Positions 9,580-52,671 of a DNA stretch of 64,000 bases are shown piece by piece. The notes under the pieces are model-generated. The model searched no databases. It saw only the letters and a list, made by a program, of their open reading frames with translations, and had not been told where the DNA came from. Position numbers and translations under genes: made by a program. Positions within the stretch are counted from its first letter, which is position 1. Each line of letters opens with the position of its first letter. Location of the stretch: positions 1 to 64,000 of the forward strand of contig JBCCHT010000017.1 of the NCBI GenBank assembly GCA_039028615.1. The letters are read 5' to 3'. This stretch comes from Myxococcota bacterium. GTDB taxonomy: Bacteria > Myxococcota_A > Polyangia > Nannocystales > Nannocystaceae.

Positions 9580-10626
9580 ATGCCATCGACCGAGCGCCCC
9601 CGCATTGCCCCCTTGGCCCTGCTGACCTTCGCCGCCGTGGGAGCGGGCACCAGCGCCCTGCTGCTCCACGAGTACCTCGTGCCCGGCGCAGGCGCGTGTG
9701 GTCCCGAAGGAGGCTGTGCCACGGTTCGCGACTCGGCCTATGCCTCGCTCCTCGGCATTCCCCTGCCCGCCCTCGGCCTCGCCTTCTTCTCGCTCTTCGG
9801 CGCTTCCGTGCTCGTCCCAGCCCTTCGCGCGCGTCGCCTGCCCGCCTGGCTCGGCGGCATCGGCAGCCTCGGCGCGCTCGGTCTGCTCGCCATTCAGGCC
9901 CTCGTGCTGGGCGCGTGGTGTCCGTTCTGCGTCGTCGTCGACCTGTGCGCGCTGAGCCTGGGCCTCGCCGTGGTCCTGCCTTCGTTGACCAACCCTCAGC
10001 TCACCATCCGGGGCTCGGCCGCGGCGGGCATCGTCGCGGTGGGTCTCGCCGTGCCCATGGCCATCGGCGTCGTGCTGCGTCCCGTGCCTCCGCCGCCCAC
10101 CGTCGAGCCCGGCCCCGCCTCCATCGCCACCGCCCCCACCGAGGGCCGGGCCACCATCGTCGAGTTCATCGACTTCCAGTGCCCCTTCTGCCGCCGCCAG
10201 CACGCCACCCTCGCCAAGATCCTCGACAGCTACGGCGAGCGCGTGCGGGTGCAGACCCATCACCTTCCTCTCGAGCGCATCCACCCCCAGGCCCGCGAAG
10301 CGGCGCGAGTGGCCTGCTGCGCCGAGGAGCAAGGCAAGGACGAAGCGGTCATCCACGCCCTGATGCAGGCCGAGGACCTGTCGCCTGCGGGCTGCCGCGA
10401 GACCGCCGAGCAAGCGGGAGTCGACGGCGAGGCGCTGTCCGCCTGTCTCGAGTCCGAGCGCCCCGACGAGCGCCTGCAGGCCGACGCCGCCCAGGCCAAG
10501 GCCAACGGCGTCCGCAGCCTGCCCACCGTGTTCATCGGCGGACAGCGCTTCCAGGGGGCGCGCGACGAAGCGACGCTGCGCAATGCGATCGAGCGGGCGC
10601 TGGCGGGCCAGCCCACGCCGACCTGA
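9580..10626 (+). CDS. VKOR (vitamin K epoxide reductase) domain fused to DsbA-like thioredoxin
   Basis: Loop cysteines ACGPEGGC..V..S, LLGIP, WCPFC; then IVEFIDFQCPFC, HP.A..AA, GVRSLPT. Confidence 0.88.
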   Translation: MPSTERPRIAPLALLTFAAVGAGTSALLLHEYLVPGAGACGPEGGCATVRDSAYASLLGIPLPALGLAFFSLFGASVLVPALRARRLPAWLGGIGSLGALGLLAIQALVLGAWCPFCVVVDLCALSLGLAVVLPSLTNPQLTIRGSAAAGIVAVGLAVPMAIGVVLRPVPPPPTVEPGPASIATAPTEGRATIVEFIDFQCPFCRRQHATLAKILDSYGERVRVQTHHLPLERIHPQAREAARVACCAEEQGKDEAVIHALMQAEDLSPAGCRETAEQAGVDGEALSACLESERPDERLQADAAQAKANGVRSLPTVFIGGQRFQGARDEATLRNAIERALAGQPTPT

Positions 10627-13098: not shown

Positions 13099-14892
13099 GT
13101 GTCGGAAGTTCTCGTTGGTCCTTTTGGTGAGCTCTACGAGCTGTCGACGCGCTTCGATCTGATGGGCCCGGTCGCCTCCACGGTGACGCTGCGCGACGCG
13201 GAGTCGTGGAGCCGCACGCTGAACTGGGTCGTCGACCATCCCGACAACCTCGTCGCCCTCCGCAATACGCTGATGCGCGCGGTTCCAAGCCTCGGGGCCG
13301 AAGCACGAGACCTGGCCGAGAAGCGCCTGCTCGAGTTGTTTGCGCGCGAGCTGGCCTCGGGCGAAGTGGTCATCTCCACGCGGGACCGACTGCGGCCCAA
13401 TGTCGACCTCCTCGACGACGTGCCCGAAGACCTCACCGCGCTCGATGAAGCGGACGCGGGAGACTCCGACCGCGGCACCGAAGAGACGACGCCCGCCCCC
13501 GCCCCCGTGGTCGAGTGCGTCTTGGACGTGGTCACGTACGCGTGCAGCCACAAGGGCGAGCGCAAGGCGGCGCTGCGTCTCGAGGCGGGCACCTCCACCA
13601 AATCCCGCGTACTCGAGGTCATCGCCGCCGACAAGGGCAACGGTGACATCATCACCGTCACCCCGCAGTACAGCGCCGCCCCCTGCTCGACCCACGCTAC
13701 CAAGGCGTTGCTGGTGCGCGGCCGCGGCCTGAACGAGACGCTGGGGCAAGGGGAGCAGCAGGTCGAGGTCTTCTACGACAGCATCGATCAGACCGACCTG
13801 CTCGGCTACTTCTGGTCGTGGAACAAGAGCGGGCACGACTTCACCTTCAGCCCGCAGGTCTGCACCGGGCACGGCGTCTCGGCCACCGTGCGGGTCTATC
13901 CCGCGCTCGAGGCCTCGGCCCACATCATGCTGATGCTCGAGACCCGCAACCGGGTCGACAACGTCGTCGCCAAGGCGCAGTCGCGGGGCTACCACGAAAA
14001 GCGCGGGCGCCCGGCGTTCACCGAGTGGCGCTTCGAGGTCGCGGCCAAGGTCAAGTACGGCCCGCACGCCTCCGAGTTCAGCATCGGCAACAAGGACCAG
14101 CGCAAGGACCCGGGCCGGGTCGAGCGCTGGGCCGCCTTCAACCGCCTGATCAAGCGCTCGATCGACGTCTTCGCCGACAACCTCGCGCAGTACGCCTGCG
14201 TCTCGATGGTCGGGGGCTCGACCGACGACAAGGTCCCGGTCCTGCAGCTGCGCCCGATGTTCCCGCAGCTCGAGATCGAGTACACGGGCAAGTACGAAGA
14301 GATCGCCTCGTCACCCAAGGTGGGCACGGCCTGGAGCGTGAAGCTCAAGGCCAACCCGCTGCTGGGGCTCGAGGCACGCCTGGAGATCCTCGCGCTGTTC
14401 ATCCAGGCGATGAAGCGCTTCCCCAAGACGGCCCCGGTCGGCTACGGCCTCGAGAAGGTCCGCGAGTGGGCCAAGAAGAAGAAGCAGACCATCGAGCTTT
14501 ATATCGCCCTGCAGGGGGTCATCGAGGGCGACTGCGGCATCGAGAAGAAGGCCGAGCTGGCCAAGGGCAGCGCCACCGGGCACATCCAGGGCGCGATCAA
14601 GGTGCTCTTCGAGGCCGTGGCTGCGCTGGGCTCCTCGGGCTACATCGGGTTCGCCTTCGGGGCGGAGGTCAAGGGCAACACCGGCCTCGCCGTGCGGCTC
14701 CAGCTCGACCACGACAGCAAGGGCGTGTTCATGGCCGGCAAGTTCGTGCTGCTGGAGTGCAAGTTCAAGGCGGCCGCCTGGGCCTCGGGCAAGTTCATCT
14801 GGGAGATCAAGGAATCCTACGAAGGCGAGTTCCAGTTCTGGCAGGAGCGCGACCTGCTGAGCACGGGCAACAAGTACGTGCTCACCAACTGA
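13099..14892 (+). CDS. Hypothetical protein (Lys/Gly-rich, beta-rich C-terminal half)
   Basis: 597-aa ORF with strong high-GC3 coding pattern; no motif recognised. Confidence 0.7.
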   Translation: MSEVLVGPFGELYELSTRFDLMGPVASTVTLRDAESWSRTLNWVVDHPDNLVALRNTLMRAVPSLGAEARDLAEKRLLELFARELASGEVVISTRDRLRPNVDLLDDVPEDLTALDEADAGDSDRGTEETTPAPAPVVECVLDVVTYACSHKGERKAALRLEAGTSTKSRVLEVIAADKGNGDIITVTPQYSAAPCSTHATKALLVRGRGLNETLGQGEQQVEVFYDSIDQTDLLGYFWSWNKSGHDFTFSPQVCTGHGVSATVRVYPALEASAHIMLMLETRNRVDNVVAKAQSRGYHEKRGRPAFTEWRFEVAAKVKYGPHASEFSIGNKDQRKDPGRVERWAAFNRLIKRSIDVFADNLAQYACVSMVGGSTDDKVPVLQLRPMFPQLEIEYTGKYEEIASSPKVGTAWSVKLKANPLLGLEARLEILALFIQAMKRFPKTAPVGYGLEKVREWAKKKKQTIELYIALQGVIEGDCGIEKKAELAKGSATGHIQGAIKVLFEAVAALGSSGYIGFAFGAEVKGNTGLAVRLQLDHDSKGVFMAGKFVLLECKFKAAAWASGKFIWEIKESYEGEFQFWQERDLLSTGNKYVLTN

Positions 14893-14904: not shown

Positions 14905-15564
14905 CTACGGAACGGCGGCGGCCGGGTTCGCCTCGATGCGTACCGCGGCCCGGATGTCGTCGGCGACATGGGCGAGGTAGCGGAACTCGATGCCGTGCCG
15001 TTCCACCAGCTCCGAGAACGCGCGGAACTCGTGCTCGGTGAAGCCGGGGTAGTTGTAGAACTCGTCGAAGAGGATGATCGAGCCGGGCACGAGGCGAGAC
15101 ACCAACGCGTCGAGCACCTGCTGGGTCGAGCGATACAGGTCGCAGTCGATGTGCAGCAGCGCCACCGGTCCGGGGTGCTCACGCAGGAAGCCGGGCAAGG
15201 TCTGGTGGAACCATCCTTTGACGAGCGTCACGTTGGACTCGGGCAGCCGGGGCACGCGGCCCCCGAGGTCGAAGTAGCCCTTGGGCCAGTCGCCGCGGGG
15301 CCCTCCCTCCCAGGCCTCGGGCAAGCCTTCGAAGGAATCGAAGCCGTACAGCGGACCCGGGTGCCGTCGCGCCATGTAGCGGATGGTGCGGCCGAGATAC
15401 ACGCCGAACTCCAGCCATAGCCCGTCGACGCTCACCTGCTCCATGCAGTAGTCGAGGTACTCGGTGATGCGAATGCCCTCGGGCACCCACCACTGCACGC
15501 CCTCGGGCGGCGGCAGGCGATGGAAGGCGGGGCTGCGGTGCAAGGGGGCGAGGTCGGTGTTCAT
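14905..15564 (-). CDS. TylF/MycF-like class I SAM-dependent methyltransferase
   Basis: LEFGVYLG, GFDSFEGLPE, LVKGWFHQTLP, LLHIDCDLY, ILFDEF; ATG lies 1 nt after the GNAT stop. Confidence 0.85.
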   Translation of the reverse strand: MNTDLAPLHRSPAFHRLPPPEGVQWWVPEGIRITEYLDYCMEQVSVDGLWLEFGVYLGRTIRYMARRHPGPLYGFDSFEGLPEAWEGGPRGDWPKGYFDLGGRVPRLPESNVTLVKGWFHQTLPGFLREHPGPVALLHIDCDLYRSTQQVLDALVSRLVPGSIILFDEFYNYPGFTEHEFRAFSELVERHGIEFRYLAHVADDIRAAVRIEANPAAAVP

Positions 15565-15565
15565 G

Positions 15566-16378
15566 TCAGTGCGCCTGGTCGTGCTGGAGGTACGCGGTGA
15601 AGGTCGAGCCAGCGTCGCGAAAACCGACTCGCTCGTAGGTGGAGCGGGCGGCCGAGTTGTCGACATCGACGGTGAGGTGGACCCGAGGCCGAAGTCCCAA
15701 GAGTTCTTGGGTCATGAAGGCGGTGAGCGCCGTGCCGTAGCCACCGCCGCGATGACGAACGAAGGTGAAGGTGCCGCCCAGCATCGCGTAGTGCTCGGTC
15801 TCGCCGAGGCGGCGCACCACGGAGACCAGCTCGCGCTCGATCTCGAGGACGGCGACCCGCGACTCGGGCACGACCTCCCGCGCCCAGTCGCATCGCACAC
15901 TGACCCGCCGCTCTCGCTCGTAGGCCGCGGCGTAGCCCTCGAGTCGGTCGCAGTCGGCCAAGGTCGCCCAGCGCCCCTCGCCCGGGGTTTGCACGCGCGC
16001 GCAGACCATTGCCCGTTGATGGTGCGCCCGGCCGACGCGGGTGGATCCGGGCAGCGCATCGACCAGCGCGTCGACCAACGCTCCGGGTACGATCACCTTG
16101 CTGGGGCGGCGGCGCGCCACCAGCTGGGGTACGAAGGACGACAGCCGCCGTGGATCCCGGGCGTGCAGCAGCCACAGGCCCGATGGCAAGACGAGCGAGA
16201 CACCCGTGACCTCCGTGCCCGCTTCGAGGATCTCGAAGTCGGTGCCGACCGGCAGCACGCCACGACCCAGGATGATCTCGGCGATGATCTCCTCCGACTC
16301 GAACTCCGCCAGCCACCGTCGGGCGCGCTCGATCTCGCTGCGGTTCGACGACCGGGGCATGGCCGCGACCGCGCTCAC
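15566..16378 (-). CDS. GNAT-family acetyltransferase
   Basis: HRGGGYGTAL acetyl-CoA loop; LTVDVDNSAARSTYERVGF; GTGA overlap with the upstream YcaO. Confidence 0.85.
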   Translation of the reverse strand: MSAVAAMPRSSNRSEIERARRWLAEFESEEIIAEIILGRGVLPVGTDFEILEAGTEVTGVSLVLPSGLWLLHARDPRRLSSFVPQLVARRRPSKVIVPGALVDALVDALPGSTRVGRAHHQRAMVCARVQTPGEGRWATLADCDRLEGYAAAYERERRVSVRCDWAREVVPESRVAVLEIERELVSVVRRLGETEHYAMLGGTFTFVRHRGGGYGTALTAFMTQELLGLRPRVHLTVDVDNSAARSTYERVGFRDAGSTFTAYLQHDQAH

Positions 16379-17598
16379 GAAGCCCGCCCCCGCACGCGGA
16401 TCCGACGACCGAGCCAGAAGCCGTCGTGCATCGCCTCGGACATGCCGGGCACGATCACCCGCACCACCGCGACGGGATCGTCGGCGGGATTGACCCGCAC
16501 CCGGAGCACCCGATCGAAGCCATCCTCGGCGAGGCGAGCCACGATGGCATCGAGCGCATCACCCAGATCGTCCGGCGGCGTCGCGGCCTCGCGCGGGGCG
16601 GGCTCGGCCGGGCCTTCGCTGGGCAGCCAGATCTGCTTGGGCTGTGGGCCCAGCTCACGGACGCGCTGCAGCTCCTGGGCGATGCGATCGAAGTCTTCGC
16701 GGGCGCCGTTGATGAAGGCCAGGCGCGACTGGGTCGCCTCGAGCACCGCCTGCTCGAGCGCGAGGAAGGCATCGGGATGCGCACACAGGCCGAACGCGGG
16801 GAAGATCCCGTCGTCGCGGGACAGGTCGCGCAGGGCCGCGGCATAGGTGGTCACGCCCCCCAAGCCGGGCAAGCGATGCACGGCGAGGCCGATGTCGAGG
16901 TCCTCGAGTCGCTCACGCAGGGCTCGCAAGCGGGGCGAGGTGCACGACTCGAGGTCGACCGGGGTGGCCCGACGCGCGAGCCGAGCCACCGCCCAGGCAT
17001 CGCGCTCGATCACCTCGAGCAGGCCGTAGAAGGTCGCTTCGGTCTCGTTGGCCCCGCTCGCCAGCCCCGTGCTGCGCCAGGCGACGGGGTTGGCCGCGCC
17101 CTCGATGCGACGGTAGGGGCACTGCACGTCGTGGGCGGGAATCCAGCAGGGCTGCCCCTCGGCATCGTGGCCGGGGTACCACGCCAGCGGCACGTCACCC
17201 GGGTCTTGGACGCCGTGGGCCAGCGGTACGGAAGCCAGCTGCACATGGGCCTGCCCCGTCGCGCGTAGCTCCGAGGGCCGAGCAATGTGGGGCTCGAGAT
17301 CGGGCTGCTCACCGTAGTGGCGCTCGATGGCCTCCATGAGCGCACCGATCCGTGCCTCACCCGAGGTCCAGGCCTTGCCGTTGAGCACGGTGATGTTGCC
17401 CGGCACATCGACCGCGGCGGGACGCGTGGCTTGCCAGCAGGGCACACCGAGTCGATCCAAACCGGTCAGATCGGTCGGCCGCACCGCGCCGAGCAATCGG
17501 GCGTGGGCTTCGGCCACGGGCAGGAACTCGGCGGCGGTGGTGCTACGCCACTGAGCGCTGGCCACGGTACAGGGGGGCGTCGAAAATACGTGGTTCAT
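16375..17598 (-). CDS. ycaO: YcaO-family protein (TfuA-associated type), copy 2
   Basis: DLTGLDRLGVP, EAIER, STGLASG, EVIERD, QSRLAFINGARED, VVRVIVPG; ATGA overlap with tfuA. Confidence 0.88.
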   Translation of the reverse strand: MNHVFSTPPCTVASAQWRSTTAAEFLPVAEAHARLLGAVRPTDLTGLDRLGVPCWQATRPAAVDVPGNITVLNGKAWTSGEARIGALMEAIERHYGEQPDLEPHIARPSELRATGQAHVQLASVPLAHGVQDPGDVPLAWYPGHDAEGQPCWIPAHDVQCPYRRIEGAANPVAWRSTGLASGANETEATFYGLLEVIERDAWAVARLARRATPVDLESCTSPRLRALRERLEDLDIGLAVHRLPGLGGVTTYAAALRDLSRDDGIFPAFGLCAHPDAFLALEQAVLEATQSRLAFINGAREDFDRIAQELQRVRELGPQPKQIWLPSEGPAEPAPREAATPPDDLGDALDAIVARLAEDGFDRVLRVRVNPADDPVAVVRVIVPGMSEAMHDGFWLGRRIRVRGRAS

Positions 17599-18248
17599 GA
17601 CTGGGCGTCTCGCAGGGAATGCAGGAGGGCGAGGGCATCGAGCCGCTTGCGGTCGACGCGATGGGGATGAGCCGTAACGAATTCGAGGAGGGCTTCGGCC
17701 TCGGGTACGAGATCGGGATCGGCCGCGGCACGCTCCCCCAGCGCCTCCCAGCAGCGATCCTCGAAGGGCAGCGCGCGGGCGATCGCGAGCAGGGCATCTC
17801 GGCCTTCGTTCGACAGCAGCCCCGCTTCGTGGGCCAAGGCCAAGCCCCAGCGGAGGTTGACCAAAGGCACGGTGACGGGGGCGCGACTGCGGGGCTCGAA
17901 GAGCAAGGCCACCTCGTCGTCGGCCTCGATCGTGCCGTCGCGGTAGGCCTCGAAGATCCAGCCCACCCCGTGCATGCCCAGGCACTCGCACTCCGCAGCC
18001 CGGAGCGCGCCCATCGAAGAGCTGCCCCAGATCTCGACCCCGGCCGCGAGCGCCCGACGGATCTCGGCGACCGAGACGGACAGCGACTGGCCGAACTCGC
18101 CGTCGATGATCCCGATGCGTCGGACGCCCCGGGCCACCACCTGCGGCAGGTCGCCGCGGCGAATGGGCTCGCGGTACTCGACGTCGAGGGACTGCCCCGC
18201 CGCCGCGTGGTCGAGGGAGGGGCCGAGAAACACCACGGTCTCAAGCAT
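17595..18248 (-). CDS. tfuA: TfuA-like protein
   Basis: VVFLGPSL, PIRRGDL, IGIIDGEF, GSSSMGALRAAE, GMHGVG.IF, DDEVAL, LVNLR, KRLDA. Confidence 0.93.
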   Translation of the reverse strand: MLETVVFLGPSLDHAAAGQSLDVEYREPIRRGDLPQVVARGVRRIGIIDGEFGQSLSVSVAEIRRALAAGVEIWGSSSMGALRAAECECLGMHGVGWIFEAYRDGTIEADDEVALLFEPRSRAPVTVPLVNLRWGLALAHEAGLLSNEGRDALLAIARALPFEDRCWEALGERAAADPDLVPEAEALLEFVTAHPHRVDRKRLDALALLHSLRDAQS

Positions 18249-19524
18249 CGGTCTGGCCTTTCGCGTAACGCAGCAGCCGTCGGCCGATCCGCAGGTCGTT
18301 GCGCAGAAGCTCGAGCCCGGGCACCACCGCGCGCACGACGGAGAAGGGCAAGTCGGGCAGCGTGAGGTCGACGGCCAGCACGCGCTCGAGGTCGGCCGCC
18401 CGCAGGCGTTCCTGAACCGTGCGCAGGTCCTGCGCGGTACTGTCGGCCGATTGATCCTCGAACGCGTCGAGCCGGGTCCGACGGCCCTCGTCACCGAGCC
18501 ACGCCGCGGCTCGCGTGCGGGCGTCTTCGTAGCTGCCTTCGCGACTGCCCAGGTGCACGTCGAGGTCCTCGCGCGCGCCCGACAGCACGGTGGCCCGGGA
18601 CAGCGCCGCTTCGGTCAGGGCGCGGCACAGACCCACCGCCGGGTCGAGATGACAGCCCGAGCCCCCGTTGATCAGCATGGGATCGGCCCGCAGCGGATCG
18701 TCGATGATGGCGTGGAACACGGGGATCCCGATGGCGTTGGTGAACACCCGAACCCGAATGTCGATCTGTGCCTCGGCGTAGGCGTCGATGAGCCCGCGCA
18801 AGGGCTGCGCTTCGATGGCGTCGAGGTCGAGCACGGCCCCGCGCCGCGGGTCGCCCTGCGCGAAGGCCATGAGGTCGCGCTCGACCAGCTCGAGCACCGC
18901 ATGCAAGGTCGCCTCGGTGCGGCTATTGCCCGAGGCGAGCCCGTTGGTGGTCGACGTGATGAGATAGGGCTCTTCGGTGTGCGGCATGATGGCGGCGACG
19001 GCCGGGACCCAGACCACGTCACCGCCCTCGCCCAGCTCGCGGGCGGGCCACCACTCGAGCGAGGCGTCGGAGGTGAAGCGATGCTTGCGAGCCAAGATCA
19101 GCTCGCGCGGATGCACGATGGGCCCCCACGCCCGTGCCTGCTCGACGGTGCCCCTCGGGCCATGACGTCCGTTTCGCTCGGCGCAGTAGCGCTCGATGGC
19201 CTCGAGCAGACCCGAGGCCCGAGCCGCCTGCGGAGTGACCCCCTTGCCGCCGGTCACCGTGATCGTCTCGTCGGCGGCCGCGGGCCGGATGGTGTTGTAG
19301 GCGGGGATCTTCAGGCGATCGAGCCCGGTGATCTCGGCGACGCGGGTGATCCCTGCGACCGATCGAGAGCGTTCGGCCAGGGCTACCGTCTCGAACAAGG
19401 TGCGCTCGCGATGGGTCCCGCCGCGCATCGCCTTGCGGGTCTCGGCGGGCGTACCCACGAATGCCTCTCGCGCGGGAGGCAGCGGGAGCTGGCAGGGGGG
19501 CAGGACGGGGACGGGTGCGTTCAC
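18241..19524 (-). CDS. ycaO: YcaO-family protein (TfuA-associated type), copy 1
   Basis: GTHR, GITRVAEITGLDRL.IP, GKG.T...A..S...EAIER, TNGLASGN, ELVERD, SR...SGAREDL, VVRAVVPGLE; GTG start overlaps the DUF692 stop. Confidence 0.92.
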   Translation of the reverse strand: MNAPVPVLPPCQLPLPPAREAFVGTPAETRKAMRGGTHRERTLFETVALAERSRSVAGITRVAEITGLDRLKIPAYNTIRPAAADETITVTGGKGVTPQAARASGLLEAIERYCAERNGRHGPRGTVEQARAWGPIVHPRELILARKHRFTSDASLEWWPARELGEGGDVVWVPAVAAIMPHTEEPYLITSTTNGLASGNSRTEATLHAVLELVERDLMAFAQGDPRRGAVLDLDAIEAQPLRGLIDAYAEAQIDIRVRVFTNAIGIPVFHAIIDDPLRADPMLINGGSGCHLDPAVGLCRALTEAALSRATVLSGAREDLDVHLGSREGSYEDARTRAAAWLGDEGRRTRLDAFEDQSADSTAQDLRTVQERLRAADLERVLAVDLTLPDLPFSVVRAVVPGLELLRNDLRIGRRLLRYAKGQTDA

Positions 19525-21017
19525 GAGGCAACCTCCATGGGCTCGGCGTGGCGGACGGAGAGTTTTCCGCCCTCGCGGTGAAAGGACATCGTGGTGGGAC
19601 TCGGTGGCGGCGGGGGCTGGCCTTCCAGCACCGCATTGACGACCGCCGTGACCGGATGGCGATATTCGACGCAGAGCCGCGGGCCTCGGGTGCCATGGGG
19701 GCGAGCCGGGACGCCGCGGTTGGCCACGCGCGAGACGTCGTGGAGAAACGCGAAGGCCTCGCGCACCGCAGCGGGCAGCGTGGGCATGGTGCTCAACGCG
19801 ACGAAGCCCTCTTCTTTGGTGGGCACGCCCATCGAGCCCGCGGGGCGCTGCGCCAAGATCTCGCGCCAGGCCCCTTCGCGAGAGCCGAACACGGTGCAGG
19901 CGAGGAGATCGGCCAAGGGCGGGAGCACGCGGATCTGCCTGAGCAGGCGATCGCTGGCTTCGCGCCACGCCGCGGTCGGCACGGCGGCGAGGCTCTGGTC
20001 GACCTCCAACGCCCCCGATTCGTGGGCGCGCAGGCGCTCGCCCTCTTCGAGCAGGGCTCGAACCTGGCGCTGGGCCGCAGCCAACGACGCGGGGCCGGGC
20101 TGCCCCAGCCGCTCGAGCACGGCCGTCTTCGGAGACGGCGAGCGATGACACCGTCGCCCCGACTGCGCCAGGGCCCGCAACGCCACGATCCCGGGCAGCG
20201 CAGCCAGGGCCGACAGCGAGCGCCGCACGATGGGCAGCTGCGCGCTATGGCACTCGAGCACCACCGACCGCAGGTTCGGGCAGCGATCGATCGCGTGCGC
20301 CACCAGCTCGACCAACTCGGGCAGCAGGTCGTGACCGTGCTCTTCGTCGTACCAGCGGGGCCCAGGCACCCGACGACCGCCCGAGACGTGCAGCTCGACC
20401 ACGTGGTCCAGGGGCAGGCGGTCGAGACACTCCAGCGGATCGATGCCTTCGAGCTGCGCCGCCACCAGCCAGTGACTGACGTCGAGCACGATCCCGCAGC
20501 CACACGCCTCGGTCAGCGCGGTGAACAACTCCGCGGGACGCAGGGGCCCGATCTCCAGCGGCAGCGGCGGAAGCTCGCACAAGAAGGGCCGCCCCAAGGC
20601 CGCGCACAGATCGGCATGACGACGCGCCACCAACTGCACCGCCCGCTCGTCGAGCACGGGCGGCCAGAACGGCCCCGCCACGGGCACCTGCCCCTCGAGC
20701 CGCCACACGGCCAGGTCCTCGACCACCCACACCGCGCCCAGGGCGTCGGCCACCGCTCGAGTCTGCGCGAGCAGCTCGGCGGGCATGGGATCGGTGGAGA
20801 TCGGCGACAGGCGGCTACCGTGCAGGCTCACCGACAGCGACGACGGCAGCCGTGACGCGAGCTCACCGAAGTCCAGCTCGGGGTCGAAGGGCTCGACGAA
20901 GTCGACGTGCGCCCGAACCTGCGGATCATCGAGGCGCGAGTCGTACTCGTGTCCGGCGATGCCCAGGCCGAGCCCGAGCACGGGGAGCGATTGAAGTGCA
21001 GAGGTCATGCGCGGCAC
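19521..21017 (-). CDS. DUF692 / MNIO (multinuclear non-heme iron oxidative enzyme) with C-terminal extension
   Basis: LGLGLG, SLHGSRLS, W..EDL, LCELPP, CGIVLDVSH, LPLDHVVELHVSGG, DEEHG, VVLEC. Confidence 0.85.
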   Translation of the reverse strand: MPRMTSALQSLPVLGLGLGIAGHEYDSRLDDPQVRAHVDFVEPFDPELDFGELASRLPSSLSVSLHGSRLSPISTDPMPAELLAQTRAVADALGAVWVVEDLAVWRLEGQVPVAGPFWPPVLDERAVQLVARRHADLCAALGRPFLCELPPLPLEIGPLRPAELFTALTEACGCGIVLDVSHWLVAAQLEGIDPLECLDRLPLDHVVELHVSGGRRVPGPRWYDEEHGHDLLPELVELVAHAIDRCPNLRSVVLECHSAQLPIVRRSLSALAALPGIVALRALAQSGRRCHRSPSPKTAVLERLGQPGPASLAAAQRQVRALLEEGERLRAHESGALEVDQSLAAVPTAAWREASDRLLRQIRVLPPLADLLACTVFGSREGAWREILAQRPAGSMGVPTKEEGFVALSTMPTLPAAVREAFAFLHDVSRVANRGVPARPHGTRGPRLCVEYRHPVTAVVNAVLEGQPPPPPSPTTMSFHREGGKLSVRHAEPMEVAS

Positions 21018-21020
21018 CGT

Positions 21021-22517
21021 TCAGCGGGAGAGGTTGAGCACGGGGAGATGGCGAGGCGAGGCAGTGGCGGGGCGCGTGGGCACCAGGCCGTAGTCGCTCA
21101 GGTCCGTGGCGGCGTAGGCCTGCTCGACGGGGACCAGCGGCGTGTAGTGCTGTCGGACCAGGGCGGCCAGCACCTGCCGATGCGAGCGGGCGAGATCGGC
21201 GTACAGCTCGAGGGTCAGGCCGATCAGGGACTTGCGCCCGTCACAGGCCTCCTCGATCACCCCGTCGTATCCGCGCCCGGCCGAGTGCGCCCGGTGGTAG
21301 CACTCGCCCCCGCAGGCATGGCGGGCCCAGCAGCTGCGGCAGGGCTCGCGCTGGTCGACCCGCTTGGCCAACGGCACCCGGCGCTGGGCCGAGGTCAGCC
21401 CGTCCCGCACGTGCCCCAAGGCGAAGTCGTCCTCCTCGAGGAAGTGATGGCAGGGGTACAGCGTGCCGCTCGGGGCCACGCCGAGCGAGGAGACCCCCGT
21501 GGTGCAGGGATACCAGCTGGTCACGTTGGCGCGGCGCTCGACCAAGCGACCCAGGATGTTGGAGAAGGGGGCGACGGCCAGCACCTCGCCCGCGAGCAGC
21601 CGCTCCCGATACCAGTGCATCAGCTCGACCACGTCGGGCACGTCGCCGCGGCGGCCGAACCCGTCCTCGCCGTAGGCCGTCTGGATGTGGATGTCGTTGA
21701 AGCCGAGGTCTCGGAACCAGCGCGCCAGCGGGAGGATGGCCCGGGCCTCGGCCGCCACCGCGTTGACCCGACGCCAAGGGATCGCCAGCCGATCCATCAT
21801 GCGACGAATGTTGCGGAGCACCAGCTTGGCCGTGCCTCGGCCGTTCTTGAACACCCGGTGCGCGTCGTTGATGGTGGGCGGCCCGTCGAGGCTCACCACC
21901 ACGCCGATCTCGTTGTCGTTGATCCAGTCGATGAGTTCGTCGGTGACCCCGGTGCCGTTGGTATAGACGCTGACCGACAGGGTGATGCCCCGCTCGGCGC
22001 AGCGCTGCCGGCCATAGGCGACCATCTCGTATAGGCGTGCCTTCTCGAGCAGGGGCTCGCCGCCGATGAAGCACAGCGACAGCTGCTTCTCGTCGCCCGC
22101 CTGGTCGACGAAGGCGTCGATGGTCTCGCGACCGACCTGCGCCGACATGCCGCGCGGGACCTCGCTGCCCTTGCGATCTTTGCTGTCGAGCTCGTTGTAG
22201 CAGTAGCTACAGCCCATATTGCAGTGATAGGTGTTGCCCACGTTGAGCCGCGTGAGCACCTTGGCGACCCCTTCGGCCGCGGTGAACGAGGGCGGGCGCG
22301 TGATCACGGGCAAGACCCGCTGCAGCGCGGCGAGGTCGTCGGCACTCGGCTCCGCGCTGGCCCTTCGCCCTTCGGCCATCGCCTCGGCCCGCCGCATGAG
22401 CTCGGCCGGTCCGCGGATCACGGCCATGCTGTCGGGGTTGTAGAGAATCCGCCGCCCGTCGTCGGGCGCGATGGGATCCAGCCCCTCGATGGGTCGGGGT
22501 CGTGATTCGGTCGTCAT
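21021..22517 (-). CDS. Radical SAM/SPASM peptide maturase
   Basis: CNMGCSYC, FIGGEPLL, TNG, SLDG; SPASM CTTG...G.LYPCH, CRSCWARHACGGEC...C; N-terminal ILYNPDSM segment could be an RRE. Confidence 0.92.
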   Translation of the reverse strand: MTTESRPRPIEGLDPIAPDDGRRILYNPDSMAVIRGPAELMRRAEAMAEGRRASAEPSADDLAALQRVLPVITRPPSFTAAEGVAKVLTRLNVGNTYHCNMGCSYCYNELDSKDRKGSEVPRGMSAQVGRETIDAFVDQAGDEKQLSLCFIGGEPLLEKARLYEMVAYGRQRCAERGITLSVSVYTNGTGVTDELIDWINDNEIGVVVSLDGPPTINDAHRVFKNGRGTAKLVLRNIRRMMDRLAIPWRRVNAVAAEARAILPLARWFRDLGFNDIHIQTAYGEDGFGRRGDVPDVVELMHWYRERLLAGEVLAVAPFSNILGRLVERRANVTSWYPCTTGVSSLGVAPSGTLYPCHHFLEEDDFALGHVRDGLTSAQRRVPLAKRVDQREPCRSCWARHACGGECYHRAHSAGRGYDGVIEEACDGRKSLIGLTLELYADLARSHRQVLAALVRQHYTPLVPVEQAYAATDLSDYGLVPTRPATASPRHLPVLNLSR

Positions 22518-22537
22518 GCGTGCTCGTCCTCGGCTCG

Positions 22538-22582
22538 AGAAAAGGGAGCCACCGCGAAGCCCCGGAGGGCTCCGCGGCAGCC
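22538..22582 (-). terminator. Strong hairpin with U-tract between precursor and maturase genes
   Basis: On the minus strand GGCTGCCGCGGAGCCC-TCCG-GGGCTTCGCGGTGGCT forms 16 bp with G-U pairs, then CCCTTTTCT. Confidence 0.65.
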
Positions 22583-22590
22583 GTACGGGC

Positions 22591-22755
22591 TCAGTTCGGC
22601 GAGGGCTCGACCGCGCTGATGTTGCAGGCCACGACGATGCAGTTCGCCGATCGGCCGCCGATCACCTTCTCCAGGTCCTCGATGTCGATGTCGACGATGT
22701 CGAGCTCCCGGTCATCTCGTTCGTTGTCTCGAGTGGGGTTCTTCGGTTCGTTCAT
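22591..22755 (-). CDS. RiPP precursor peptide (54 aa, double-glycine leader)
   Basis: MNEPKNPTRDNERDDRELDIVDIDIEDLEKVIGG-RSANCIVVACNISAVEPSPN; first gene of the maturase operon. Confidence 0.85.
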   Translation of the reverse strand: MNEPKNPTRDNERDDRELDIVDIDIEDLEKVIGGRSANCIVVACNISAVEPSPN

Positions 22756-23213: not shown

Positions 23214-24059
23214 ATGACCGACGCCAAGGTTCCCATCTACGAGGTGGTGCTGACCGCGAGCGATCTCGACATCGAGGTCCGCGTCAACGACGTGCCGGTC
23301 ATGCGGGTCGGCGGCGGCCATGTCGAGACCAAGTTCGACGTCAACCCGCACGTGTTCACGGGCAAAAACCACCTGGGGGCCGTGGTCCGGCCCCCCGGCG
23401 ACGCCCCGAACTATTCTCCGGGAGCACGAGCGGAGATCGAGCTGCGCGTGCTCGGTTTTCCCGGCAACGACCTGGTCGACCCTCGCGGCCGACTCGTCTT
23501 CGAGGCGAGCGGGGTCGAGGCGGGCGAGGCCTTCGCTCACTCGTGGACGCCCGAGGGCGCCGAGCCGGTCGTGCGTCAGGCTCGGGCCGGCCTCGCCTTT
23601 CGCTCGCGGATCCCCGTCGATCTCATGACCCCCTTTCCACCGTGGGGTTGGCTGAGCGCCGACACCCTCAACGACGGACCGGTCGTCTTCGACGAGCTGC
23701 ACACCGAGCTCGAGGCGCTGTGGAGTCTGGTGCAATCCAAGGACACGGCCACGCTCGAGGCGGTCGCGGCCGAGCAAGCCATCGATTGGCAGATCGCCTA
23801 CGGCCTCGACAGCGAGGACGAAGCGCAGCGCCTGCTGGGCGTCGCCGACACGCTGGGCGATCCCGACGTGGAAGCCCTGCCGCTGCCCGATCCGGGCGAT
23901 CTACGGCTGCAGCTGCTCGGCTTCCGCAAGCTGGCACGGTTGGTCGACGCGGACGGCAAGGATCCGATCACCCTCGGCGTCCGCAATGCCCCCCACATGA
24001 CCGGGCGATTCACGGCGATGTTCTGCCGCCGTGACGGATCCTGGGTCATGATTCGGTAG
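23214..24059 (+). CDS. Hypothetical protein
   Basis: 281-aa ORF with good codon pattern; N-terminal DIEVRVNDVPV; no function recognised. Confidence 0.7.
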   Translation: MTDAKVPIYEVVLTASDLDIEVRVNDVPVMRVGGGHVETKFDVNPHVFTGKNHLGAVVRPPGDAPNYSPGARAEIELRVLGFPGNDLVDPRGRLVFEASGVEAGEAFAHSWTPEGAEPVVRQARAGLAFRSRIPVDLMTPFPPWGWLSADTLNDGPVVFDELHTELEALWSLVQSKDTATLEAVAAEQAIDWQIAYGLDSEDEAQRLLGVADTLGDPDVEALPLPDPGDLRLQLLGFRKLARLVDADGKDPITLGVRNAPHMTGRFTAMFCRRDGSWVMIR

Positions 24060-28902: not shown

Positions 28903-30087
28903 CTACGGGTCGCCCGCGTCCAACGGGTCCTCGTACTGCTTGGTCACCAACGCCTCGGTGAGCTCGAGCTGCTCGAGGATGTCCGCGATCCGGCGCGACG
29001 AATCGGGCCGAAAATACGGGTTCGCGTCGTCTTGCAGATCCAGCGCGGCCAGCTCGACGAGCCCGTTGCGAATGGCCTCGAGCGAGGTCTCCACGTGAAT
29101 GGTGTGCTCCGAGCACTGCCGGTTCTTTTGCCGCAGCCCGATGTTGAGCGCGGGCAGCCGCAGCGACGGCGCCTCGAGGATTCCACACGAGGAATTGCCC
29201 ACCAGGCCCGCGGACGACCGCAGCAACGAGAGGAACTCGTAGCGCGGCAGCGAGGGCACCACCGTGTAGCGATCGGCGAGCCCCTCGAGCAGGTCGCGGA
29301 TCACTCCGCTGTCCGGGTCGTTGTTGCTCGAGACCCACAGCACCCGACGTTCGGGGGCCTCGGCCAGCCACTCGTCGAGCGCCCCTCGCAGGTTGGAGGC
29401 GACCTCGGCCGGCGCCGCGGCATCTTGGGCGCAGGGGTGGAACAAGGCCACCAGGTACTGGCCCTCGACCAACCCGAAGCGAGGCAGGACGTCCTCGGGG
29501 GCCGCCATGTGCCCGCGGGCGATCTCGTCGAGCTGCGGCGCTCCGACGACGTGGATACGCCAACCGTGCTCACCCAGGGCGCGGACCCGACGGGCACACA
29601 GGTCGTTGGCCACCAGGTGCACGTGGGCGATGCGGGAGATCGCGTGGCGGAAGAACCCATCGAAGTGCCCGGAGACCTCACCGCCCTGGATGTGGGCGGT
29701 GGCGATTCCCAGGCTCGTGGCCGCGATCGCCACGATGAGCTGCTCGCGGCGATCGCCCGAGAGCAACACGACGTCCGGGGCCATCTCGGTGAGCACCCCG
29801 GCCACCCGCTGCATCAGCACGCCCAGGTCCTCGATCGACGACGTGGCCGACCGCTCCGGGCGGGTGTTCTGGATGATCGAGTCGAGCGTGAACCCGTCCC
29901 GCTCGAACTCGCGGTAGGTCTCGCCGAAGTCGGGGTCCGCATGCATCTCGCACACGATGACCCGCAGCTGCACGCCCTCGCGGCGCTGCAGCTCCTTCAT
30001 GACGGGACGGATGTAGCCGTACTCGCCACGAGAACCGCTGAAGACCGCGATGGTCCGTGGGGCGGGCCGTTCTAGGTCTGAAACCAT
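28903..30087 (-). CDS. neuC: UDP-N-acetylglucosamine 2-epimerase (hydrolysing, NeuC-like)
   Basis: SGSRGEYG, LSGDRRE, HIQGGE.SG, RHAISR.AH.H, VGAPQLD, GNSSCGI.EAPS, NIGLRQ. Confidence 0.88.
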   Translation of the reverse strand: MVSDLERPAPRTIAVFSGSRGEYGYIRPVMKELQRREGVQLRVIVCEMHADPDFGETYREFERDGFTLDSIIQNTRPERSATSSIEDLGVLMQRVAGVLTEMAPDVVLLSGDRREQLIVAIAATSLGIATAHIQGGEVSGHFDGFFRHAISRIAHVHLVANDLCARRVRALGEHGWRIHVVGAPQLDEIARGHMAAPEDVLPRFGLVEGQYLVALFHPCAQDAAAPAEVASNLRGALDEWLAEAPERRVLWVSSNNDPDSGVIRDLLEGLADRYTVVPSLPRYEFLSLLRSSAGLVGNSSCGILEAPSLRLPALNIGLRQKNRQCSEHTIHVETSLEAIRNGLVELAALDLQDDANPYFRPDSSRRIADILEQLELTEALVTKQYEDPLDAGDP

Positions 30088-30782
30088 GGACTCTCCGTGG
30101 GGTCGACCGCCCGCTCGGCATACGCCTCGGCCATGCCGAACTCGAACTCGGTGTCGATGTCCACGGCCTCCTCTTCGGGAATGTCGAACAGGTACGGGTC
30201 TCCCGGTACGTCGCGAAAGATCGGCTCGCCGGCGACGAACCGCTCGCGCGGGAACAGATGGAAGGCGTGGGCCACCCGGTGCACCTGCGGGCTGCGCTTG
30301 GTGTCGCCGATGCCCAGGTCGACCTGCACCAGGGGTCGGCCGTCTTCGCCGTAGAGCCAGTCGCGTCGGGTGACCACCGACGTCATGGCGTCGATGCTCT
30401 CGTCGGACTCGAGCTGATCGATGGCCCGACTGAGGGTGCCCGGCCGCATGAAGGGATGGCACGCGTTCATGAACGCGATGTGAGTCGTGCTGGCCCGCGC
30501 GTAGTGGGCGTTGATCACCACCTGCGGGGCATCCCCGGCGACGGCCTCGGGCGCCCGCTCGAGCAGCTCGACGCCCTCGGGTCGTACCCGCTCGAACAGC
30601 TCGCGCAGGGGGGCCTCGGCCACGCAGAAGAACCGCTCGTCAGCGTCCACGTGGGCCAGCTTGCGCAACGCGATCTCGGCCAACGAGCTGCCCGCGAAGG
30701 GACGGGTCATCTTGTCCTTGCAACGGCTGGACCGAAGTCGCGCATTGAGCATGACGGCGACGGAACGGGTCATCCGTGGCAC
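30072..30782 (-). CDS. Acylneuraminate/ulosonate cytidylyltransferase family (NeuA-like)
   Basis: NARLRSSRCKDK, NACHPF, EAVDIDTEFEF. Confidence 0.8.
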   Translation of the reverse strand: MPRMTRSVAVMLNARLRSSRCKDKMTRPFAGSSLAEIALRKLAHVDADERFFCVAEAPLRELFERVRPEGVELLERAPEAVAGDAPQVVINAHYARASTTHIAFMNACHPFMRPGTLSRAIDQLESDESIDAMTSVVTRRDWLYGEDGRPLVQVDLGIGDTKRSPQVHRVAHAFHLFPRERFVAGEPIFRDVPGDPYLFDIPEEEAVDIDTEFEFGMAEAYAERAVDPTESPWFQT

Positions 30783-30846
30783 CCGGGCACTCGCGCAAGA
30801 GGCGCATTGCTTCTGTCAGGCACGGCGCCAGCATAATATCGCCATC

Positions 30847-31866
30847 ATGTCCGTTGCCAAGCTGTTGGAGGCCTCTCGTCCCCTCGTGGTCGCAGAGGCG
30901 TGCGACAACCATTTCGGTTCCTTAGATCGGGCCTTCGCCATGATCGACGCAGCTCACGCGGCGGGAGCCGACGTCGTGAAGTTCCAGCACCACATCGCGC
31001 GGGCGGAGATGCTGCAAGACCTGCCTTTGTCGGACAACTTCGACGAGAGCTTGTGGGAGTTCCTGGAGCGCTGCGCACTCTCCGTGGACGACCACGCGAA
31101 GGTCATGGCCCACGCCGAGCAGCGCGGGATCCAGTACCTGTGCACTCCGTTCTCGATCGTGGCTGCTCGCGAGCTGCAGACCCTGGGCCTTCGCGAGTTC
31201 AAGATCGGCTCCGGGGAGCTGCGGGACCTGTGGTACCTTGAACAGTTGGCCGAAATGGCCGACCACCTGATCCTGTCGACGGGCATGTGTACGCCCGAGG
31301 AGATCGACGCCACGGTGCAGGCCATCGGCGGGAAGGTGCGGGTGAGCCTGATGAACTGCACCAGCGCCTACCCGACGCGCCACGCCGACGTGACGCTGAG
31401 CATGATCCCCGTGCTCAAGCAGCGCTACCCGGAGCTGTCCATCGGGCATAGCGACCACACGCCGGACAACTACACCTGCTTCGGCGCGGTGGCCCTGGGC
31501 GCGACCATGGTGGAGAAGCACTTCACCCTCGACCGCTCGCTGGGGGGCCCCGACGCCTCGGTCTCCATCGAGCCCGACGAGCTCGCCGACCTCGTCGCGG
31601 GCGTGCGTGCGATCGGCGAGGCCTCCCACGGTGAAAAGCGCATCCGCGATTCCGAGTCGCCCGTGCGCGCGTGGGCCTACCGCAGCGTCGTCACCACCCA
31701 GGCGATCCCCAAGGGCACCACCCTCGGGCCCGAGCACATCTGCACCAAGCGACCGGGGACGGGCATCGCCTCCGCCGACTACCGCCAGGTGCTCGGCTGC
31801 GTGGCCACGACCGACCTCGACGACAACCACCTGCTCTCCTGGGACGACCTGCAGCGTCCCGCGTAG
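30847..31866 (+). CDS. neuB: N-acetylneuraminate/nonulosonate synthase family (NeuB-like) with SAF domain
   Basis: AEA..NH.G, GADVVKFQ, CTPFS, KIGSGE, LSTGM, CTSAYP, GHSDHT, EKHFTLDR, KRPGTGI. Confidence 0.9.
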   Translation: MSVAKLLEASRPLVVAEACDNHFGSLDRAFAMIDAAHAAGADVVKFQHHIARAEMLQDLPLSDNFDESLWEFLERCALSVDDHAKVMAHAEQRGIQYLCTPFSIVAARELQTLGLREFKIGSGELRDLWYLEQLAEMADHLILSTGMCTPEEIDATVQAIGGKVRVSLMNCTSAYPTRHADVTLSMIPVLKQRYPELSIGHSDHTPDNYTCFGAVALGATMVEKHFTLDRSLGGPDASVSIEPDELADLVAGVRAIGEASHGEKRIRDSESPVRAWAYRSVVTTQAIPKGTTLGPEHICTKRPGTGIASADYRQVLGCVATTDLDDNHLLSWDDLQRPA

Positions 31867-31875
31867 CGGCGGGCT

Positions 31876-33534
31876 CTAGCGCTCGTCGAAGACGTAGTCG
31901 CCCAGCACCAGCACGTCGATCTCCGTCGACCGAAAGCAGTCGATGGCCTCACGCGGCGTGTTGACGATGGGCTGCCCCTTGACGTTGAACGAGGTGTTCA
32001 GCAGCACGGGGCACTGCGTGCGCTGCTCGAAGGCCTGCAGCAAGCGATGGAAGCGATCGTTGTCGGCGGCCGAGACCGTCTGCACCCGGGCCGTGCCGTC
32101 GTGGTGGATCGTGGCCGGGATCGACTCGAGGCCGGCCGGGCGGGCCCGGGCCGCGATCAGCATGTGCGGGCTCGGCTGCGACAGCTCGAAGAACTCCGAC
32201 GCGCGGTCTTCGAGCACGGCCGGCGCAAAGGGGCGGAAGTCCTCGCGGAACTTCACCCGCCGGTTGAGGGTGTCCTTCATCTGCGCGGGAAAGGGCGCGG
32301 TGATGATGCTGCGGTTGCCCAGCGCCCGCGGCCCATGCTCGGAGCGCCCCTGAAACCAGCCCACGATCGCGCCCGCAGCCAAATGCTCGGCCGTGTCCGC
32401 GAACACGTCCTTGGAGCGCACCGCCTCCAAGCCAGCGTCGGTGGCTGCCTGCACGATCTGCGCGTCGTCGAAGCCCGAGCCGAGATACGGGTTGCGAAAC
32501 CGCAGCGGCCGTAGCCCGGGGTCGTGGGCTCGCTGGGCGAGGTAGCACGAACCGACGCAGCCGCCGTTGTCGCCCGCCGCCCAGAACACGAAGATGTCGT
32601 CGAAGATCCGCATGCGCTCGATGGCCCCGTTCATCGAGCAGTTGAGCGCCACCCCGCCGGCCAGGCACAGGCGGCGATGGTCGGGGCGAAGCTCGCGGGC
32701 GCGTCGCAGCTGGCCGGTCACGATGGTCTCGAGGCGCTGCTGCACCGCCGCCGCCACGTCCATGTGGTGCTGGGTGACCGGGGCCTCGGGCTGCCGTCGC
32801 GGGCCGAAGGTCGACAGGAAGCGCTCGCTGATCCACGTGTCGCGCTTCGTCGGGTAGGCGAACCACTCGGGGTTGATGCGAACCCCGAAGTCGCCGTCGA
32901 CCTCGATCATCTCGCGGAACACGTCCTCGTAGGTCCTCGAGCCCCGCGGTACCGTATGGCTCGGATCGCCGAAGCCGGCCAAGCCCATCACGATCCCCTC
33001 GTCGCAGCTGATCTTCCAGCCCAGGTAAAACGTGATGGCGGTGTAGACCAGCCCCAAGGAGTGGGGGAACGCGCTGCCGCCGTGCAGGACCTCCAGGCCG
33101 CTGGGGTCGGCGGCACACAGCAGAGACGACGTGTTCTCGCCGATCGCGTCGTAGCTGGCCACGATCGCCCGATCGAAGCCACTGGGGTAGTACGCAGTCG
33201 CGACGTGACACTCGTGGTGCGAGTGAAACGTGACCGGGCCGGAATAGCCGAGCTCGCGCTGCACCAGCTGTTCGTACTGCGGCCGTGACCGGGTCGCCCG
33301 ACGCGGTGTGCCCTCGGGGATCAGCTCGGGATCGAAGTTGAAGGCGACCTCATCGATGTCGCTCAACGTGATCCCGGCCATGCGAAGGCAGTCCATGACC
33401 GCTTCGGTGGGGAAGGCCCGGGTGTGTTTTTCCCCCGTGTAGCGCTCCTGCTCGCAGACGGCCACGATGCGCCCGTCCATCATCAACGCGGCGGCCGTGT
33501 CCCAGCCCCCGTGGGAGATCCCCAGGATGTTCAC
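31876..33534 (-). CDS. Carbamoyltransferase (NodU/CmcH family)
   Basis: ILGIS...DTAAAL, EQERYT..KH, HHECH, GIVMGLA, LAGGVALNC, E.GPRALGNRS, FRPFAP, RVQTV, LNTSFN. Confidence 0.93.
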   Translation of the reverse strand: MNILGISHGGWDTAAALMMDGRIVAVCEQERYTGEKHTRAFPTEAVMDCLRMAGITLSDIDEVAFNFDPELIPEGTPRRATRSRPQYEQLVQRELGYSGPVTFHSHHECHVATAYYPSGFDRAIVASYDAIGENTSSLLCAADPSGLEVLHGGSAFPHSLGLVYTAITFYLGWKISCDEGIVMGLAGFGDPSHTVPRGSRTYEDVFREMIEVDGDFGVRINPEWFAYPTKRDTWISERFLSTFGPRRQPEAPVTQHHMDVAAAVQQRLETIVTGQLRRARELRPDHRRLCLAGGVALNCSMNGAIERMRIFDDIFVFWAAGDNGGCVGSCYLAQRAHDPGLRPLRFRNPYLGSGFDDAQIVQAATDAGLEAVRSKDVFADTAEHLAAGAIVGWFQGRSEHGPRALGNRSIITAPFPAQMKDTLNRRVKFREDFRPFAPAVLEDRASEFFELSQPSPHMLIAARARPAGLESIPATIHHDGTARVQTVSAADNDRFHRLLQAFEQRTQCPVLLNTSFNVKGQPIVNTPREAIDCFRSTEIDVLVLGDYVFDER

Positions 33535-36889: not shown

Positions 36890-36896
36890 TTCGACG

Positions 36897-44920: not shown

Positions 44921-44929
44921 CGGGTGCCC

Positions 44930-51169: not shown

Positions 51170-51178
51170 AATTCGTCC

Positions 51179-52660: not shown

Positions 52661-52671
52661 TGAATCCGGAC

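Follow-up and report, generated by a model that had tools for sequence, protein, structure and literature searches.

A putative RiPP gene cluster from a Myxococcota bacterium combining a radical SAM/SPASM enzyme, an MNIO, TfuA, and two YcaO proteins around one conserved cysteine

We analyzed the first 64,000 nt of contig JBCCHT010000017.1 (assembly GCA_039028615.1, a Myxococcota bacterium), hereafter the window, and give coordinates on its forward strand. [quoted passage not shown] It is very probable that the cluster is a real pathway for a ribosomally synthesized, post-translationally modified peptide (RiPP) acting on the 54-residue peptide. The product is most likely a sulfur-cross-linked, sulfur-substituted, and further oxidized small molecule. 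A first-pass annotation of the sequence had proposed a candidate new RiPP class. A real, uncharacterized RiPP family was found, whereas the novelty of the class is unproven, since both MNIO with YcaO-TfuA and rSAM with TfuA-YcaO have precedents.

Related loci and distribution

A genome scan with the MNIO alignment gave two contigs of an actinomycetotal metagenome-assembled genome (G073), which, together with a third contig, make up a second locus with rSAM/SPASM, MNIO, TfuA, and two YcaO genes. Six loci were compared: the window, G073, and those of four chaplin-bearing genomes (G420, G658, G731, and G1114). At all six, a short peptide gene directly precedes an orthologous rSAM gene and is accompanied by YcaO1 and TfuA genes. 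The MNIO, YcaO2, and GNAT genes are present at two, the window and G073. The other four loci have a minimal form, in which the peptide, rSAM, one YcaO, and TfuA are followed by a major facilitator superfamily gene (assigned by Pfam for L104 and by eye at the other three); searches of these four genomes detected neither a long-form MNIO nor a YcaO2 orthologue, and the GNAT had no match over its full length in them. G658 and G420 also carry a JmjC oxygenase gene (Pfam-tested for L103). In two minimal clusters the JmjC gene is followed by one for a 200-residue protein without a Pfam match (L103:4438–5037, with a counterpart in L104). The cluster had been presented as one unit; what is conserved at 6/6 loci is the set of peptide, rSAM, YcaO1, and TfuA, to which MNIO, YcaO2, and GNAT form an add-on.

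In G073, the order is peptide, rSAM, GNAT, YcaO1, TfuA, MNIO, YcaO2, and an ABC transporter, and the proteins are 38–57% identical to those of the window. The two loci have six enzyme types in common, arranged differently, suggesting that the assembly in the window is more than chance. The three contigs over which the G073 locus extends overlap by 127 nt (100%) and 120 nt (95%). Records of the G073-type MNIO and of the G073-type peptide each name a contig of 17,035 nt. Upstream of the G073 peptide gene lies a gene for an unrelated class I methyltransferase. The TylF-like gene of the window is co-oriented with the rest, as first reported, though its membership in the cluster is unproven; it was rejected as an established pathway member, since the window query did not find it in any of the five other cluster-bearing genomes.

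At E < 1e-60, the rSAM belongs to a set of 53 proteins (itself included), and most of its named members come from Streptomyces and Kitasatospora. The family forms one supported clade in a quick unrooted rSAM tree, where the MNIO-linked rows do not group together. For five of 11 MNIO-family proteins, the longest contig has exactly the same size as for one of 52 rSAM homologues (0.02 expected from jittered sizes); this points to more MNIO-type loci, though such matches do not give the gene order. The family is rare and sporadic: the rSAM profile did not find it in the genomes searched from the window's family (0/72) and phylum sample (0/300) or, beyond G073, from G073's phylum (0/300) and order (0/150), and gave 3/401 and 1/401 in samples of chaplin-bearing relatives that may overlap. 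A metagenome scan with the MNIO alignment confirmed none of 101 candidates. With the rSAM alignment, 80 of 275 metagenome loci were kept (identities 22–36%, with one short 45% match); these were set aside as distant rSAMs, none having matched the other seven genes. Viral contigs gave 0/15, and plasmids one distant match (32%). Among sequencing runs, none of RNA was listed as containing the cluster, and one of DNA was flagged as its possible source.

Precursor peptide

The window peptide consists of an acidic leader up to Gly33-Gly34 and the core RSANCIVVACNISAVEPSPN, in which the family-conserved Cys44 is followed by Asn45 and Cys39 is the second Cys. No family match over the cut-off was obtained for the peptide in Pfam or NCBIfam. 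With a profile search, 17 more peptide records were obtained; P0228, a longer-start duplicate, was dropped, so that the window peptide and 16 others were compared. In all 17, the residue after the last Cys is Glu (14), Asn (2), or Asp (1), and the one after that is Ile in 15. The residues before this Cys are mostly hydrophobic. Position −5 is Arg in 16/16 other peptides and Cys39 in the window. Lys is absent, in 17/17, from the ten residues preceding the Cys and from everything after it. The tail after the Cys is longer in both MNIO-type peptides than in the minimal ones.

The conserved part of the peptide is about six residues around Cys44. Only one of 50,567 small open reading frames (ORFs) of the source genome, the window peptide itself, matches the six-residue motif, whose letters were taken from the 16 other peptides and whose span was chosen after the window peptide was seen. 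The enzymes had been proposed to target a 20-residue core; conservation is limited to this short segment.

A double-Gly leader has, by consensus, Gly-Gly with hydrophobic residues at −4, −7, and −12. The window leader contains Ile/Leu/Val at −12/−7/−4 relative to its double Gly. A double Gly at this position is missing from all 16 other peptides, and the double-Gly leader was therefore rejected as a family trait and taken as peculiar to the source genome. Three C39 peptidase-ABC transporters (PCATs) are encoded in the source genome (G000), all on other contigs and none in the cluster (loci L111, L112, and L113; G000:C18 and C1). A short ORF near L112 (2208–2405) has a double-Gly-type leader and two Cys, and an ORF near L111 (9463–10395) resembles an ATP-grasp ligase by eye. 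No Sec signal is evident in the window peptide.

Radical SAM/SPASM enzyme

The rSAM has CxxxCxxC at residues 99/103/106 and SPASM Cys residues at 338, 356, 393, 396, 402, 406, and 425. These seven Cys line up with the SPASM Cys of CteB and are invariant in 46 aligned homologues; they are present even though the SPASM Pfam match is slightly below its cut-off (19.4 vs 21.5 bits). CteB is the closest solved relative by sequence (E 6e-59), and the predicted model of residues 7–443 matches CteB (5WGG) with Z 38.1 and rmsd 3.0 over 415 aligned residues. The corresponding Z for the sactisynthase SkfB is 19.8. In the model, three strands and helices at residues 11–72 align with the N terminus of CteB as a RiPP recognition element (RRE)-like domain. 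The best NCBIfam models are the QhpD type (203 bits; cut-off 453) and PapB (193; 340), and the SCIFF maturase model gives 153 (425). Judging from the sequence and the model, the enzyme is of the CteB/PapB/QhpD type, with a three-Cys auxiliary cluster AC1 and a four-Cys AC2. The three-Cys auxiliary cluster common to CteB, PapB, and Tte1186 binds the substrate thiol (PMC10177961).

YcaO proteins, TfuA, and GNAT

YcaO1 and YcaO2 are 31% identical to each other, and both are closest to the methanogen thioamide-type enzyme MJ1094. YcaO1 scores 262 bits against TIGR03266 (cut-off 365) and 127 against the SagD-type model. Both proteins contain the Glu/Arg nucleotide-binding motifs. [quoted passage not shown] Neither YcaO of the window has a PxPxP tail, TIGR03604 is below its cut-off, and no ThiF/E1-like partner was detected among the eight genes with Pfam; an azole-type LAP was ruled out on these grounds.

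TfuA adjoins the thioamide-type YcaO1 in the operon and matches 6XP8 along its length (E 2e-39). Its Ser78 and Lys201 align with a Ser and a Lys of 6XP8, which we take to be the catalytic pair. A Ser-Lys pair is stated in PMC13185837. For the GNAT, no solved relative was found by sequence.

MNIO

The MNIO matches PF05114 with 81.7 bits, and its model has a pLDDT of 91. The barrel matches TglH with Z 24.1 and rmsd 3.2 over 265 aligned residues, and the matches to TglH and MbnB extend up to residue ~283. The metal-site positions His66, Glu100, Asp101, Glu148, Asp179, His182, His210, Glu255, and His257 are invariant in 12/12 rows. The metal site should be noted, as Asp101 and His182 occupy the positions of His and Asn in MbnB. 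His257 presumably stands in place of the catalytic Asp of MbnB. The protein fails every subfamily cut-off tried (BufB 69/310, ApyH 61/400, HvfB 40/360, and ChrH 15/600 bits).

The C-terminal ~200 residues gave an Atlas structure match to DUF2063-type partner proteins with a TM-score of 0.56, which serves as a lead only, and the wide fold search barely covered this domain. The match suggests that the domain in the model is a fused partner protein. Comparable MNIO-partner fusions are present in the same structure-match output, so the fusion itself is not new. A structure prediction of the MNIO-precursor complex scored 0.02 and gave no verdict. The MNIO is a long form: a word-based search gave three full-length homologues at ~40%, and an exhaustive search ten full-length representatives at 50% identity. 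Within the host's family, the single-protein search gave N-terminal matches only (25–40%). The source genome itself has six more MNIO-like genes, on contigs C1, C2, C13, C22, C25, and C52, with 27–32% identity over the barrel.

Proposed pathway and alternatives

We propose the following scheme and give it, as a whole (rSAM thioether, YcaO1-TfuA thioamide, and MNIO/YcaO2/GNAT tailoring), about an even chance. The acidic leader would be bound by the RRE of the rSAM, which would join the thiol of Cys44 to a non-α side-chain carbon of what is most likely Asn45 (the relatives have Glu or Asp there), to form an unusually small thioether ring. The conservation of the Cys at loci without MNIO suggests the rSAM (or YcaO) as its explanation; the non-α linkage is proposed from the type of the rSAM (CteB/PapB/QhpD). 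Cys44-Asn45 is favored because +1 is the sole position that always holds an acceptor-kind residue. Asp, Glu, and Asn are known to act as acceptors for PapB, QhpD, and the streptococcal Cys-Asn enzyme (PMC11002830). Near the Cys44 site, YcaO1 and TfuA would exchange a backbone carbonyl oxygen for sulfur in an ATP-dependent reaction, judging from their families. The thioether and the thioamide would be the entire known chemistry at the four minimal loci.

Alternatively, though this is fairly unlikely, the rSAM could make an α-carbon (sactionine) link or use an acceptor for Cys44 that lies several positions upstream; the role of the Asx/Glx at +1 would then be that of the YcaO-TfuA site or of a recognition residue. 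Small α-linked rings exist, as in enteropeptin, and StdGH, the YcaO-TfuA of the std cluster of Streptomyces thermodiastaticus, thioamidates at an Asn (PMC13174530). An upstream acceptor could be sought at −6, which is Glu or Asp in ten peptides, but the other seven have Met, Leu, His, or Asn there. The nearest models and structure are those of the non-α maturases QhpD, PapB, and CteB, with SkfB far behind in Z, which argues for the non-α thioether.

The fused MNIO-partner enzyme of the window and G073 would oxidize a residue immediately following the Cys, one that is either not a Cys or has been modified before. Action on the modified unit is proposed because StdE, the MNIO of the std cluster, acts only on a pre-modified peptide (PMC13174530). 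The JmjC oxygenases in two minimal clusters are a weak hint at a hydroxylation slot that the MNIO would occupy. The other possibility, an unlikely one, is that the MNIO oxidizes Cys39 or Cys44 to a thiooxazole or an oxazolone-thioamide metal-binding unit and that the product is a metallophore. Cys is the target of most characterized MNIOs (PMC12452194, Table 1) and occurs twice in the window core, and the modeled C-terminal domain is similar to DUF2063, with which bufferin-type enzymes are partnered. Yet the G073-type peptides (n = 5) have a single Cys in their C-terminal region, and this Cys is equally conserved at the four loci without MNIO, so the MNIO is unlikely to explain it; the MNIO is also far below the BufB, HvfB, and ChrH cut-offs, and the peptide lacks an evident Sec signal.

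The add-on enzymes would target either the modified unit or the extended tail found in MNIO-type peptides. YcaO2 may activate a second amide, most likely to give a second thioamide, with an amidine or cleavage being possible. Cleavage of the leader would probably follow Gly-Gly, with a PCAT encoded elsewhere in the genome probably exporting the product, and the GNAT may acylate the N terminus exposed by leader removal. This site is favored for the GNAT because there is no Lys near the core (similar reasoning in PMC12636437). If the TylF-like enzyme is part of the pathway, which is uncertain, it may O-methylate a new hydroxyl.

It is quite unlikely that the pathway comprises the peptide, rSAM, YcaO1, and TfuA only, with MNIO, YcaO2, GNAT, and TylF hitch-hiking on another substrate or YcaO2 being a noncatalytic partner. 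The absence of MNIO, YcaO2, and GNAT from four loci and the restriction of TylF to the window locus would fit, as would the residue just before the first Glu-x-x-Glu-Arg motif, Gly in YcaO2 and Ser in YcaO1. Against this, the three add-on genes are interleaved with core genes and overlap them, with an order that differs between the two loci; the operon showed no other small gene for a second substrate; the tail is longer in both MNIO-type peptides; and five further MNIO-rSAM pairs have matching contig sizes. Chance assembly or misannotation, with the 54-residue ORF not being a substrate, would fit the lack of significant similarity between the peptide and the profile of its counterparts but is highly improbable in view of the gene overlaps, the codon bias, the five other genomes with homologous clusters, and the 1/50,567 motif match.

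Several points weigh against the proposed scheme. The cluster is known here from genes, domains, motif conservation, and co-occurrence, from which each chemical step, its site, and the order are inferred. The 17/17 count of Cys-Glu/Asn/Asp overstates independence, as the 16 other peptides fall into three lineages (of 10, 5, and 1 members) and were retrieved by a profile that already included those types. With a profile hidden Markov model of these 16, the window peptide ranks 261 of 50,567 small ORFs at 2.3 bits, which is not significant. A non-α thioether from i to i+1 has no precedent in the literature covered, the small ring of enteropeptin being an α-carbon link, and the rSAM, judging from its sequence, is outside the named PapB, QhpD, and SCIFF maturase subfamilies, below every NCBIfam cut-off. 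Cys39, the second Cys, could be used by an MNIO. The gene context of this MNIO type comes from two loci only, one of them (G073) split over three contigs, and no protease or transporter gene is found among the genes of the window cluster.

A wider claim can be put forward tentatively, as a possibility that we would not expect to hold: a new RiPP class with a non-α thioether between a Cys and the neighboring Asx/Glx (a seven- or eight-membered ring) beside a backbone thioamide. To this, the window would add an MNIO fused to its partner, self-sufficient and with altered iron ligands, which oxidizes the sulfur-rich unit, and a YcaO2 with a different reaction, giving a small-molecule-like scaffold by undescribed chemistry.

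Gene organization and other loci

The ORF coordinates confirm the eight co-oriented genes headed by the peptide, with the overlaps and spacers first reported, and the order and sizes were checked in the sequence (Table 1). The assigned enzyme families are likewise borne out by Pfam/NCBIfam domains (Pfam: Radical_SAM, MbnB_TglH_ChrH, YcaO twice, TfuA, GNAT, and TylF). The junctions are GTGA at 19521–24 (MNIO/YcaO1) and 16375–78 (YcaO2/GNAT), ATGA at 17595–98 (TfuA/YcaO2), and an 8-nt overlap at 18241–48 (YcaO1/TfuA). The rSAM-MNIO spacer is 3 nt and the GNAT-TylF spacer 1 nt; the MNIO start is GTG, with an ATG 9 nt further in. In all eight ORFs the GC content is 0.85–0.91 at the third codon position and 0.36–0.53 at the second, the pattern expected of real genes.

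The hairpin between the peptide and rSAM genes (z −2.65; 1/200 shuffles equally stable) possibly stabilizes or attenuates the precursor transcript. The operon has the GC content of its surroundings; on one side of it a convergent gene stops at 14892, and on the other a divergent gene begins at 23214. These flanking genes (13099–14892, plus strand, 597 residues; 23214–24059, plus strand, 281 residues) have no Pfam/NCBIfam match over the cut-off.

Table 1. Features of the window cluster.
Feature	Coordinates	Strand	Remarks
Precursor peptide	22591–22755	−	54 aa
Intergenic region with GC-rich hairpin	22518–22590	−	Folding of 22518–22593
rSAM/SPASM maturase	21021–22517	−	498 aa; N-terminal RRE-like domain
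MNIO (DUF692) with fused C-terminal domain	19521–21017	−	Barrel ~12–280; C-terminal domain ~295–498
YcaO1, thioamide-type	18241–19524	−	427 aa; orthologue at 6/6 loci
TfuA	17595–18248	−	217 aa
YcaO2	16375–17598	−	407 aa; orthologue solely in the other MNIO-type locus (G073)
GNAT/FR47-like acyltransferase	15566–16378	−	270 aa; full-length orthologue (39%) in G073 only
TylF/MycF-like O-methyltransferase	14905–15564	−	219 aa; 253 aa if upstream ATG at 15666 used; membership uncertain

Elsewhere in the window, four radical SAM genes, one with two rSAM stretches, form a run at 42533–52783 (minus strand), and a fifth lies at 60414–61643 (plus strand); they are possibly another peptide-modifying locus. 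The nucleotidyltransferase-like, polysaccharide deacetylase, and sulfotransferase genes at 30072–38117 probably belong to unrelated glycan modification. A second thioamide RiPP cluster of the source genome (L110:5844–14627, G000:C63, minus strand) encodes a B12-type rSAM (weak Pfam match), a fused TfuA-YcaO, a PhyH dioxygenase, an rSAM/SPASM protein, and a JmjC-containing ORF. Its 63-residue peptide (10111–10299) has a double-Gly leader resembling that of the window peptide. The locus recalls the family with fused tfuA-ycaO, two rSAMs, and PhyH in Fig. 5A of Malit et al. (PMC8120280).

Significance

The four minimal and two elaborated clusters on a one-Cys motif form a natural series, in which the job of each enzyme is separable experimentally. 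The family could give the first characterized RiPP with both a thioether and a thioamide, a ring size new to ranthipeptide maturases, and a reaction for an unstudied MNIO subfamily (the ten full-length representatives above). It could also explain why some TfuA clusters have two YcaOs, a question that Malit et al. left open (PMC8120280).

Comparison with known systems

The first-pass annotation knew of no characterized pathway with this combination. The set of rSAM/SPASM, MNIO, TfuA, and two YcaO together was not found in open-access full text of PMC and bioRxiv, which was the scope searched (subscription journals and MIBiG lie outside it), nor is such a cluster described in the excerpts of PMC13635244, PMC9576775, and PMC13185837. 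Every pair of the three chemistries is nonetheless precedented in print or prediction, and it is the triple that was not found.

The std cluster is already characterized as a combination of MNIO with YcaO-TfuA on one precursor, as in the window; in std, the thioamide is formed first and the MNIO acts on a pre-modified residue (PMC13174530, a 2026 preprint). It differs in having no radical SAM enzyme, one YcaO, a separate partner protein, a peptidase-carbamoyltransferase, and an SNKEWQE core without Cys (PMC13174530). As the SNKEWQE core and the peptidase-carbamoyltransferase are both missing from the window operon, a std-type pathway was ruled out.

Thioamitides and the clusters predicted by Malit et al. 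in 2021 and by RiPPER share TfuA-YcaO with the window, and some predicted families also have rSAM/SPASM or several YcaOs (PMC8120280, PMC6511847). The genome mining of Malit et al. predicted rSAM/SPASM-TfuA-YcaO and multi-YcaO TfuA clusters of other architecture; their rSAM/SPASM families differ in a stand-alone PqqD, a P450, and several Cys, and none is characterized (PMC8120280). DUF692 is not mentioned in the main texts of PMC8120280 and PMC6511847. Dataset 4 of RiPPER, a 2019 supplement, contains at least one minimal-type precursor of the window family (sequence identical to P0217) near a TfuA (PMC6511847). The supplement text of PMC8120280 (34,194 characters, with the precursor-logo figures outside it) and that of PMC12452194 gave no match to the family; the supplementary figures of Malit et al. 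may bear on the minimal family.

Aminopyruvatides (ApyHI and ApyD) and biphenomycin-like pathways resemble the window in that a single pathway has both an MNIO and a radical SAM enzyme, the MNIO acts on non-Cys residues, and apy includes a methyltransferase. They differ in that ApyD is a B12 methylase and neither YcaO nor TfuA is named in the passages covered (PMC12452194, PMC11002830). The itf system of Bacteroides thetaiotaomicron uses rSAM/SPASM and YcaO on one short core, but its YcaO makes an amidine, its rSAM makes a Trp-Ile C-C link, and it has no TfuA or MNIO (PMC11002830).

The ranthipeptide systems (CteB/thermocellin, PapB/freyrasin, and QhpD) share with the window the RRE, the radical SAM domain, and the seven-Cys SPASM domain, with a Cys donor near Asp, Glu, or Asn (PMC11002830, PMC10177961). 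The window family is distinguished from them by a single conserved Cys with an acceptor-type residue at +1, rather than a CX3D or six-Cys pattern, and by the co-encoded YcaO-TfuA.

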